Source: a virus
Direction: 5' to 3' (one strand)
DNA length: 11,021 nucleotides
UHGV virus genome: UHGV-0316254
The position numbers were made by a program, and so were the translations under genes. The notes under the pieces were generated by a model, which was not told the DNA's origin, ran no database searches, and worked only from the letters and a program-made list of their open reading frames with translations. Shown piece after piece: positions 10,630 to 11,021 of this stretch (the stretch's first letter is position 1; each line of letters opens with the position of its first letter).

Positions 10630-10658
10630 TTGACATATTGTGCTATTTGTGTCATAAT
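10630..10658 (+). promoter_or_regulatory. Strong sigma70-type promoter immediately after the operon
   Basis: TTGACA (10630-10635), 17 nt, CATAAT (10653-10658), with TG at 10650-10651 one nucleotide upstream of the -10 (extended -10-like). No plausible ORF follows within the window. Confidence 0.55.
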
Positions 10659-10760
10659 AAGTTATAGGGTAGGTATTAGAATCACTCCACCCTCGTATAA
10701 CAATACGCACTCCCTGAGAATGCCGTTTCCCATAGGCGGCGCTCTCTCCCATTGAATATC

Positions 10761-10876
10761 CTCTCTGAAAGCTGGTTGTTTTCCTTTGTTGTGTTTAGTT
10801 CCAAAGGGTGGCGCGGGCGTTCCCACTTGTGTCGGGTGGTAACGAACAATCACCGCGCACATTCTCTTTCAGAGAG
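10761..10876 (+). ncRNA. Candidate structured non-coding RNA element (nested inverted repeats) downstream of the 10630 promoter
   Basis: Perfect 11-bp inverted repeat CTCTCTGAAAG (10761-10771) / CTTTCAGAGAG (10866-10876) encloses a second stem, GTGGCGCGG (10807-10815) with CCGCGCAC (10852-10859), which has one bulge. Further hairpins follow at AGAGCA..TGCTCT (10871-10889) and TGGTGG..CCACCA (10969-10984). No ORF of 60 aa or more and no Shine-Dalgarno-led start is present. Confidence 0.3.
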
Positions 10877-11021
10877 CATATTCCGTGCTCTAAACCTTAT
10901 AACTGAAGTGGTCAACAAAAACTGGCCACCGAGTTAGAGTTTTTTCCAGTATCGATTTTCCGATTCGTTTGGTGGTAACCCACCATTATATTCGTGCGGT
11001 CTTAGTGCGCTGTAATATCCA

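Follow-up and report, generated by a model that had tools for sequence, protein, structure and literature searches.

In phage lambda, the late genes are controlled by a unit that consists of the PR' promoter, the 6S RNA, the tR' terminator, and the Q antiterminator. In the PLE leader of satellite P4, it is the CI RNA itself that acts as the regulator; it is considered here together with the c4 RNA of P1/P7 (Rfam C4, RF01695). The put RNAs of phage HK022, which comprise two stem-loops of about 35 nt, are cis-acting and render RNA polymerase terminator-resistant. Furthermore, ROOL and GOLLD are large phage-associated structured RNAs that form Rfam families and whose function is unknown.

Here, we analyzed a stretch of 11,021 nt from the viral genome UHGV-0316254 (the window), in which a promoter, P_late, precedes a structured untranslated leader that in related islands lies ahead of a capsid operon. 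As in the lambda late unit, a strong promoter follows directly on a small gene of a regulatory region, the untranslated and terminated transcript is located ahead of structural genes with a terminator just before the late operon, and the initial transcribed sequence as well as the promoter spacer are conserved. Unlike in lambda, the island leader is about three times longer, shows clear selection for RNA structure, and carries several tandem terminators, whereby the proteins encoded upstream match no Pfam family and include no Q-family protein. Similarity to any phage late region was not found in the phage records. With the PLE leader of P4 the locus shares the satellite-like context, a constitutive promoter, a structured untranslated leader, and a predicted premature end of transcription. 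It differs from P4 CI and P1 c4 in that the C4 family (RF01695) gave no match at any threshold tried, in that conserved internal complementarity of the seqA/B/C type is missing, and in that the controlled operon encodes the capsid and not, as in P4, replication. Like put, the leader begins with a conserved stem-loop, and its transcript has intrinsic terminators to pass further on, but instead of two stem-loops the island has one small hairpin followed by approximately 500 nt of further structure. That the hairpin loop hardly varies between islands that are otherwise mosaic would be in keeping with a host partner that is itself conserved, for example RNA polymerase. ROOL and GOLLD resemble the island RNA in the size class of about 550 nt, the extreme degree of structure, and the location on a phage-related mobile element. 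Unlike these two, the island RNA has no Rfam match, occurs in enterobacterial hosts, and is fixed in its place as a terminator-bearing leader ahead of a capsid operon.

At 99.9% identity, window positions 3532-10903 match a section of an E. coli XYEH3934 island, which reaches from the 3' end of a tRNA-Thr gene to a direct repeat 13.5 kb away. Intact islands are also carried by E. coli RM10410 and EC361, and there are Enterobacter and Klebsiella carriers. This integrated island of approximately 13.5 kb looks like a phage satellite. Its left part consists of accessory genes, a small tyrosine recombinase gene on the minus strand, and about 1.5 kb without genes. Then follows the early operon, which encodes a 57-aa and a 54-aa protein, a DEAD-box helicase, p94, p127, and p112, and thereafter P_late, whereby the next annotated gene of the island follows only some 670 nt past the p112 stop. 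The late operon encodes p71, p119, a 343-aa capsid protein, p65, a 621-aa tape-measure/TolA-like protein, and two small gene products, and a convergent integrase gene closes the island; the succession of p71, p119, the capsid gene, and the gene of the tape-measure/TolA-like protein is common to the window-type islands. The capsid protein is of the lambda-E type and matches the Pfam family Phage_cap_E over its full length with an E-value of 1e-13 (L003 16341-17372, beyond the window). In a tblastn search of 50,697 phage records it gave only two weak matches with 23-27% identity; judged by these comparisons, the island capsid gene is very distant from known phage capsid genes. A portal or terminase was not recognisable in the island, and the gene set is unusual for a satellite. 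About 45 related loci, which come from E. coli, Enterobacter, and Phytobacter as well as from viral contigs and metagenomes, were gathered with three probes, namely p112, the capsid protein, and the 23-nt motif at the transcription start. The islands are mosaic, yet p127, p112, promoter, leader, and p71 always occur in this order and at fixed distances in these approximately 45 loci. A description of the island was not found in the literature searched. The features of the window are listed in Table 1.

Table 1. Features of the window, with positions counted from its first nucleotide
Feature	Position	Strand	Basis or detail
Different element	1-3577		gtrA/gtrB-type (yfdG/yfdH) serotype-conversion genes
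Copy of tRNA-Thr 3' end	~3531-3577		47 nt
Tyrosine recombinase	5788-6369	-	193 aa
Region without convincing ORFs	6370-7600		~1.2-1.5 kb; layout kept in relatives
Early promoter	7614-7643		TTGACA-18-TATTAT, 11/12
Early terminator	7681-7709		12-bp stem
p127	9900-10283	+	conserved gene directly upstream of P_late
p112	10276-10614	+	112 aa; conserved gene directly upstream of P_late
Degenerate TAAC-N6-GTTA copy	10605-10618		TAACATAAATATTA
P_late	10630-10658	+	consensus scan, 11/12 with TG; position kept in ~45 loci
P_late -35 hexamer	10630-10635	+	TTGACA, followed by 17-nt spacer
P_late TG	10650-10651	+	1 base upstream of -10
P_late -10 hexamer	10653-10658	+	CATAAT
Near-universal motif TATAGGGTaAGTATTcGAATCAC and 5'-terminal hairpin	10663-10693	+	pattern matches, MFE folds
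Stem of 5'-terminal hairpin	10666-10673/10687-10693	+	AGGGU-A-GG/CC-ACCCU, loop UAUUAGAAUCACU
Small hairpin CGUAU-AACA-AUACG	10694-10707	+	alignments, fold
Hairpin with UCCCAUAG in loop	10716-10747	+	GCCG 10722-10725/CGGC 10737-10740
Core RNA domain	10760-10903	+	covariance model, pair counts, strand test, MFE folds
P1	10764-10771/10866-10873	+	inverted repeat of the earlier note
P2	10811-10816/10853-10858	+	core domain helix
P3	10818-10826/10836-10844	+	core domain helix
P4	10874-10879/10885-10890	+	core domain helix
P5	10895-10903	+	core domain helix, only 5' arm remains in the window
IS3-family element end (ISEc52/IS911-like), IRR side	10904-11021	-	BLAST, translation, phage Sf6 annotation
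OrfB C-terminus	11020-10934	-	GYYSALRPHEYNGGLPPNESENRYWKKL, stop codon 10936-10934

An earlier note, which had been made from the letters of the window only, placed a promoter of the form TTGACA-N17-CATAAT with an additional TG right behind the stop codon of the operon. Our scan agrees with this and scores the site, a near-consensus sigma-70 promoter, 11/12 with TG. The -35 hexamer begins 15 nt past the stop codon of p112, and the transcript is predicted to start at A10664 or A10666. Within 7.5 kb, 16 promoter-like sites were found compared to 15.3 expected, two of them with a score of 11/12, and a single match of the P_late grade in 7.5 kb is not remarkable in itself. P_late is credible because the identical promoter is present at the equivalent place in about 45 related loci, every one of which has retained a near-consensus promoter. 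The spacer, of which two types occur, keeps GTGC-N5-(T/A)TGT across the relatives, and directly past the -10 hexamer nearly all loci read (G)TTATAGGGTaAGTATTCGAATCAC, with the exceptions of L011, where there is an insertion in the motif, and L006, which has a variant. The conserved spacer (GTGC-N5-TGT) and the conserved region from +1 to +23 would be compatible with a Q-binding element and a sigma-dependent promoter-proximal pause. The sequence GGTAAGTAT, which is common to the early and the late promoter of the window, is not kept in the relatives and was dropped as a candidate.

Only the first part of the leader is preserved in the window. In BLAST searches against complete E. coli genomes, phages, and plasmids, the region splits in two at 10903/10904. 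For positions 10600-10903, the match is with a chromosomal locus that few E. coli strains carry (99.7-100% identity), and positions from approximately 10904 to 11021 match thousands of IS3-family copies annotated as ISEc52 or IS911; the query was matched by 5,108 E. coli and 3,552 plasmid records, and nearly all among the matches listed fall in the IS part. The homology to uninterrupted islands stops exactly at 10903, and the IS opens with TGAAGTGG at 10904. The C-terminus of the transposase OrfB encoded on the minus strand equals that of IS911 OrfB except for the last residues, and in phage Sf6 the corresponding IS911 end likewise carries orfB on the opposite strand, in the orientation seen in the window, so that the transposase gene converges on P_late. 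Judged by its sequence, with the terminal TG, the match to known copies, and OrfB ending near the end, the segment is the end of an IS3-family element. It was inserted within hairpin P5 and cuts the leader after about 240 nt, and this IS-truncated leader copy is probably non-functional. Among the complete E. coli genomes searched, the junction between native and IS sequence was not found. The structured RNA of at least 350 nt up to the window edge, which the earlier note had postulated, therefore has to be shortened, because the native sequence stops at 10903 and the final 118 nt are the IS end; from the further hairpins mentioned there, those near GTGGTCAACAAAAACTGGCCAC have to be taken away, since they belong to the IS end and not to the RNA. 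As a side observation, this IS copy has one A more in the A-run at 10934-10949 than the IS911 of phage Sf6, and the OrfB of the window ends with YWKKL compared to YWKNSNSVASFC in the IS911 of Sf6.

In uninterrupted islands, the untranslated leader comprises 510-680 nt, typically about 550 nt, and continues for approximately 380 nt more than the window copy up to an intrinsic terminator, whereby the p71 start is located 505-680 nt past the start-site motif in the relatives. The full leader of L004 (545 nt) has a folding energy of -195.6 kcal/mol compared to -137.7 +/- 5.5 kcal/mol for shuffled sequences (z = -10.6), and the 239 nt of native RNA in the window fold better than all 200 shuffles (z = -3.66). 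No ORF is conserved across the leader family, as no frame stays open on either strand; this holds also for a 66-aa minus-strand ORF at 10662-10862, which was rejected, and it is in line with the earlier statement that there is no credible ORF behind the promoter. A short GC hairpin with a U-tract is located 60-95 nt upstream of the p71 ATG in 31 of the 32 distinct complete leaders, which corresponds to the arrangement of promoter and intrinsic terminator before late genes in a lambda-type Q unit. This final position is filled by four unrelated hairpin sequences; thus, the position of the terminator is conserved and its sequence has been replaced. Many leaders contain one or two extra terminator-like hairpins further upstream. 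The terminators were found by a custom scan; the standard terminator scan missed the final one, probably because the stem extension consumed a T. A second class of leaders (class 2) is equally structured and shares the 5' hairpin, the widely conserved motif UCCCAUAG, a P4-like hairpin, the motif GUCAGAC, the promoter, and the terminator, but is without the core domain. The Rfam check suggested in the earlier note was carried out against Rfam 15 at the gathering score and at E ≤ 10 with the window, an intact leader, and four other loci; no family, retron msr included, was matched, and only chance hits of the miRNA type were returned. No paper quoting the leader motifs was found in the literature searched either, and the RNA family appears to be undescribed, in an undescribed island family.

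The core domain provides the evidence for a conserved RNA structure in the leader. The perfect 11-bp inverted repeat noticed earlier is indeed present (10761-10771/10866-10876) and grows to 18 nt with one mismatch (10754-10771/10866-10883). The GC-rich stem that it was said to enclose exists as well, but it has 6 bp (GCGCGG/CCGCGC, helix P2) and the 8 bp claimed are reached only with one bulged G. In MAFFT alignments read by eye, the inverted repeat occurs in four further compensated versions (TTTCTGAAAG, TTTTTGAAAG, TTCCGTAAAG, and CCCCTGAAAAC), whose 3' arms have all changed to match, ATGCGCGG/CCGCGCAT of the GC stem is replaced by ATGCACGGT/ACCGTGCAT in relatives, and covariation is also seen in the innermost hairpin and in two 3' hairpins. 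Independent MFE folds of 17 homologues gave the same core architecture in nearly all cases. A covariance model of the core (R1), which has 176 positions and was built from eight sequences, scores the window with 81.8 bits (E-value 3e-19; 10760-10904, with the last hairpin cut off) and detects the core domain in 32 sources, the window included. In the alignment of 23 distinct core sequences, 95.3% of the cells are standard pairs, compared to 39-48% when the 3' partners were slid by 1-3 columns as a control. Both sides have changed in 30 of 57 pairs, and none of 500 shuffles attained the observed value on any of five measures. This alignment (A6) was fitted to the covariance model and thus favours structure; the hand-read MAFFT alignments and the independent MFE folds agree with it. 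In a strand test, 140 G-U cells were counted on the plus strand and 12 on the minus strand, with 95.3% and 85.0% of cells paired, respectively. The G-U excess on the plus strand indicates that the structure belongs to the strand transcribed from P_late. Taken as a pattern of sequence change, with compensatory pairs beyond the controls and on one strand, this is a conserved structured RNA and the RNA structure is real, so that the covariation across relatives bears out the strong promoter followed by a structured non-coding RNA that had been read from the window alone. Short motifs are conserved in its loops and junctions, namely UAUUCGAAUCA, UCCCAUAG, UUGUGUUG, and GUCAGAC. Among viral sequences, the core domain turned up in island contigs and in no other context.

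The 5' part of the leader contains three hairpins upstream of the core. When 22 variants were folded by MFE, the 5'-terminal hairpin (10666-10693) appeared in all of them, and it carries compensatory changes in L003, L023, and L011. In the small hairpin behind it, the tetraloops of the relatives are GACA, GAAA, or GUCA, and one leader subtype is without this hairpin. The hairpin that exposes UCCCAUAG has covarying pairs at the alignment columns 97-117, 98-116, and 101-113. The pattern of the start-site motif matched 36 metagenome stretches, at least one of them by chance (L024), and eight viral stretches, whereby the latter are contigs already known as island carriers or carriers of the core domain (L056 and L059); for L061 and L062, which are among the viral stretches with the motif, the covariance model gave no core-domain match. 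No copy of the 23-nt motif was detected in 50,697 phage records. Since the motif is absent from the phage records and present in only eight viral stretches, a late promoter of a helper phage is not mimicked at that level, and this idea was dropped, also with regard to the core domain, which occurs only in island contigs. Two further candidates, the boxA-like sequence UGCUUUCUAACAA and the ops-like sequence GCGGTAG, were found in some leader types only and were dismissed as chance.

The two genes directly upstream of P_late were examined for a Q-like identity. The p112 homologues form 88 protein clusters, all from Enterobacteriaceae according to their names, and every name given by the sources is "hypothetical" or "uncharacterised"; p127 is represented by 167 protein clusters, and the best 120 of the 167 are all named in the same way. 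Against Pfam, p127 and p112 gave nothing at E ≤ 0.01, and the weak matches up to E = 10 are to unrelated families; searches of p94, p127, and p112 against Pfam/NCBIfam likewise yielded only weak unrelated matches. The Q antiterminator families are contained in Pfam, so that a Q protein among p127 and p112 would have been seen. The AlphaFold model of p112 is a generic three-helix bundle (pLDDT 89), for which there was no match below E = 0.4 in the PDB. The model of p127 is mostly of low confidence (pLDDT 47.5), and its N-terminus is strongly basic (MGRKERSNIVRIEKATRASKRKY), which recalls arginine-rich RNA-binding motifs; the p127 variants do not track the near-invariant loop of the 5' hairpin. 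Overall, Pfam, NCBIfam, PHROGs, a PDB profile search, AlphaFold, and Foldseek revealed nothing specific, and a Q-like identity of p112 or p127 was rejected.

In our view, the terminated leader gates the late (capsid) operon, with read-through by antitermination, and we assign this reading a probability of roughly 0.55. P_late would fire and most transcripts would stop at the leader terminators, which would leave an RNA of some 450-600 nt that is stable and strongly folded, and the capsid operon would be expressed only once RNA polymerase has been made terminator-resistant. This resistance would probably be set up at the 5' hairpin, which is near-invariant, and at the promoter spacer, which is conserved. 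Candidates for the antitermination factor are a protein of the island, for instance p127, a protein of the helper phage, and the RNA as such. In the window, the IS would uncouple P_late from whatever lies downstream. The gate is supported by the early operon, which follows the same promoter-terminator logic: the early terminator is located approximately 40 nt past the early promoter, followed by a Shine-Dalgarno sequence and the first early gene (TTG at 7742), and this layout is kept in relatives with a helicase-type replication module. The early unit may give either an RNA of about 60-70 nt or an attenuator. Against the gate stands that the search for an antiterminator among the island proteins gave no family match for p94, p127, and p112. 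Furthermore, about 500 nt of structure exceed what a simple promoter-terminator gate needs, which suggests a further or own role of the RNA. Among the three proposals of the earlier note, the best fit is that of a long structured leader whose gene lies past the window edge, as the intact RNA leads via the terminator to p71 and the capsid operon.

The role of the RNA itself is addressed by a reading that we regard as possible, though clearly less probable than the gate, namely that it is a stand-alone trans-acting ncRNA of about 450-600 nt and that the capsid operon is driven separately or by leak-through. It could then serve in island immunity or copy control (as P4 CI RNA or ColE1 RNA I/II do), interfere with the helper phage, or have a structural or packaging role. 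Promoter and terminators set discrete ends for such an RNA, the fold is exceptional (z = -10.6), nearly every helix covaries, and the loop and junction motifs named above are conserved; moreover, the mosaic make-up and the variability of the leader classes are what one would expect if they determine specificity. However, a target was not found, since the rest of the island offers a single 15-nt stretch of complementarity, which is at chance level, and in duplexfold the early leader pairs with the RNA no more strongly than shuffles do. There is also no Rfam relative, and a separate promoter for the downstream operon, that is, a consensus promoter between the last terminator and p71, was not detected, whereby an activator-dependent promoter without consensus hexamers may be located past the last terminator. 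A trans-acting role and the gate are compatible with each other, and both could hold at once. It is tempting, although we advance this only tentatively, to go beyond the gate and to regard the RNA of about 550 nt as a new family of large structured RNAs on which the regulation of a capsid-encoding satellite of a new kind would centre. Instead of serving as a passive leader, the RNA might make RNA polymerase terminator-resistant in a put-like manner, sense helper infection, or act in trans in immunity or helper interference. Large bacterial RNAs with such covariation support are rare, and most of them proved to have notable functions. In an uncharacterised family of small islands, which occurs in Enterobacteriaceae and has its own capsid gene, the RNA occupies the switch point; if it gates or drives late expression, it would show how such a satellite times capsid production, and one more family would be added to the short list of processive-antitermination or satellite-immunity RNAs.

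A ligand-binding core domain that controls the terminators, as the earlier note's mention of a riboswitch-like element would imply, is improbable. A multi-helix junction with conserved unpaired nucleotides is indeed located upstream of terminators, but more than 250 nt and several independent hairpins separate it from the final terminator, class 2 leaders lack the domain and yet keep the promoter, the 5' hairpin, and the terminator, one leader subtype has its neighbouring hairpins deleted, and no Rfam riboswitch was matched. We consider it just as improbable that the conservation reflects an element at the DNA level, for instance an origin of replication, a packaging site (cos/pac), or operators. 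Satellites often keep ori or pac sites between the replication and capsid modules, which is where this region is located, the dyad TAAC-N6-GTTA flanks the leader at two fixed places, and ATTCGAAT within the start-site motif is a palindrome. On the other hand, the compensatory changes keep the pairing within one strand, with the excess of G-U cells on the transcribed strand (140 vs 12), the palindrome is disrupted in the window (ATTAGAAT) and in L011, while the hairpin stem is compensated, and iterons were not found. The dyads suggest that the RNA and sites in the DNA may well exist side by side. The chance that the inverted repeat represents the a1/a2 repeats of a retron msr/msd RNA, from which a reverse transcriptase encoded downstream would make msDNA, is negligible. 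The likeness is one of shape only, that is, a promoter followed by an ORF-free stretch with an inverted repeat of 11-18 nt that encloses stems. Unlike in a retron, the repeat is the internal helix P1 of a much larger RNA of about 550 nt, which starts approximately 100 nt upstream and runs approximately 430 nt downstream to the terminators, and retron msr was not among the matches in Rfam even at E ≤ 10. The reverse transcriptase that the earlier note expected in this case just past 11021 is absent from intact islands: the window ends within the IS, the genes downstream of the leader in the four annotated intact islands (L001, L003, L004, and L011) encode hypothetical proteins of 71-74 aa and 119-120 aa and then the capsid protein, and no reverse transcriptase is annotated anywhere in these islands. 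Thus, this proposal is refuted, and the terminated leader as a gate of the capsid operon remains our preferred reading.

Some minor observations concern the surroundings of the leader. One of the two fixed sites of the dyad TAAC-N6-GTTA lies just upstream of the -35 hexamer of P_late; the other follows the last terminator and precedes the ribosome-binding site of p71. It was found at 15695-15708 of L003 and at equivalent sites in most loci, and the window carries a degenerate copy (Table 1). About 0.3 copies are expected per 23 kb, and two are present in most loci of approximately 10 kb. The dyads that bracket the leader probably serve as binding sites of a dimeric protein. Further upstream, the region behind the recombinase gene could be an invertible or recombinase-controlled regulatory region. 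At the left side of the island, ARAGORN finds no complete tRNA in the tRNA-Thr copy, and the succession of the gtr element and this copy points to two elements in tandem at the thrW attachment site.
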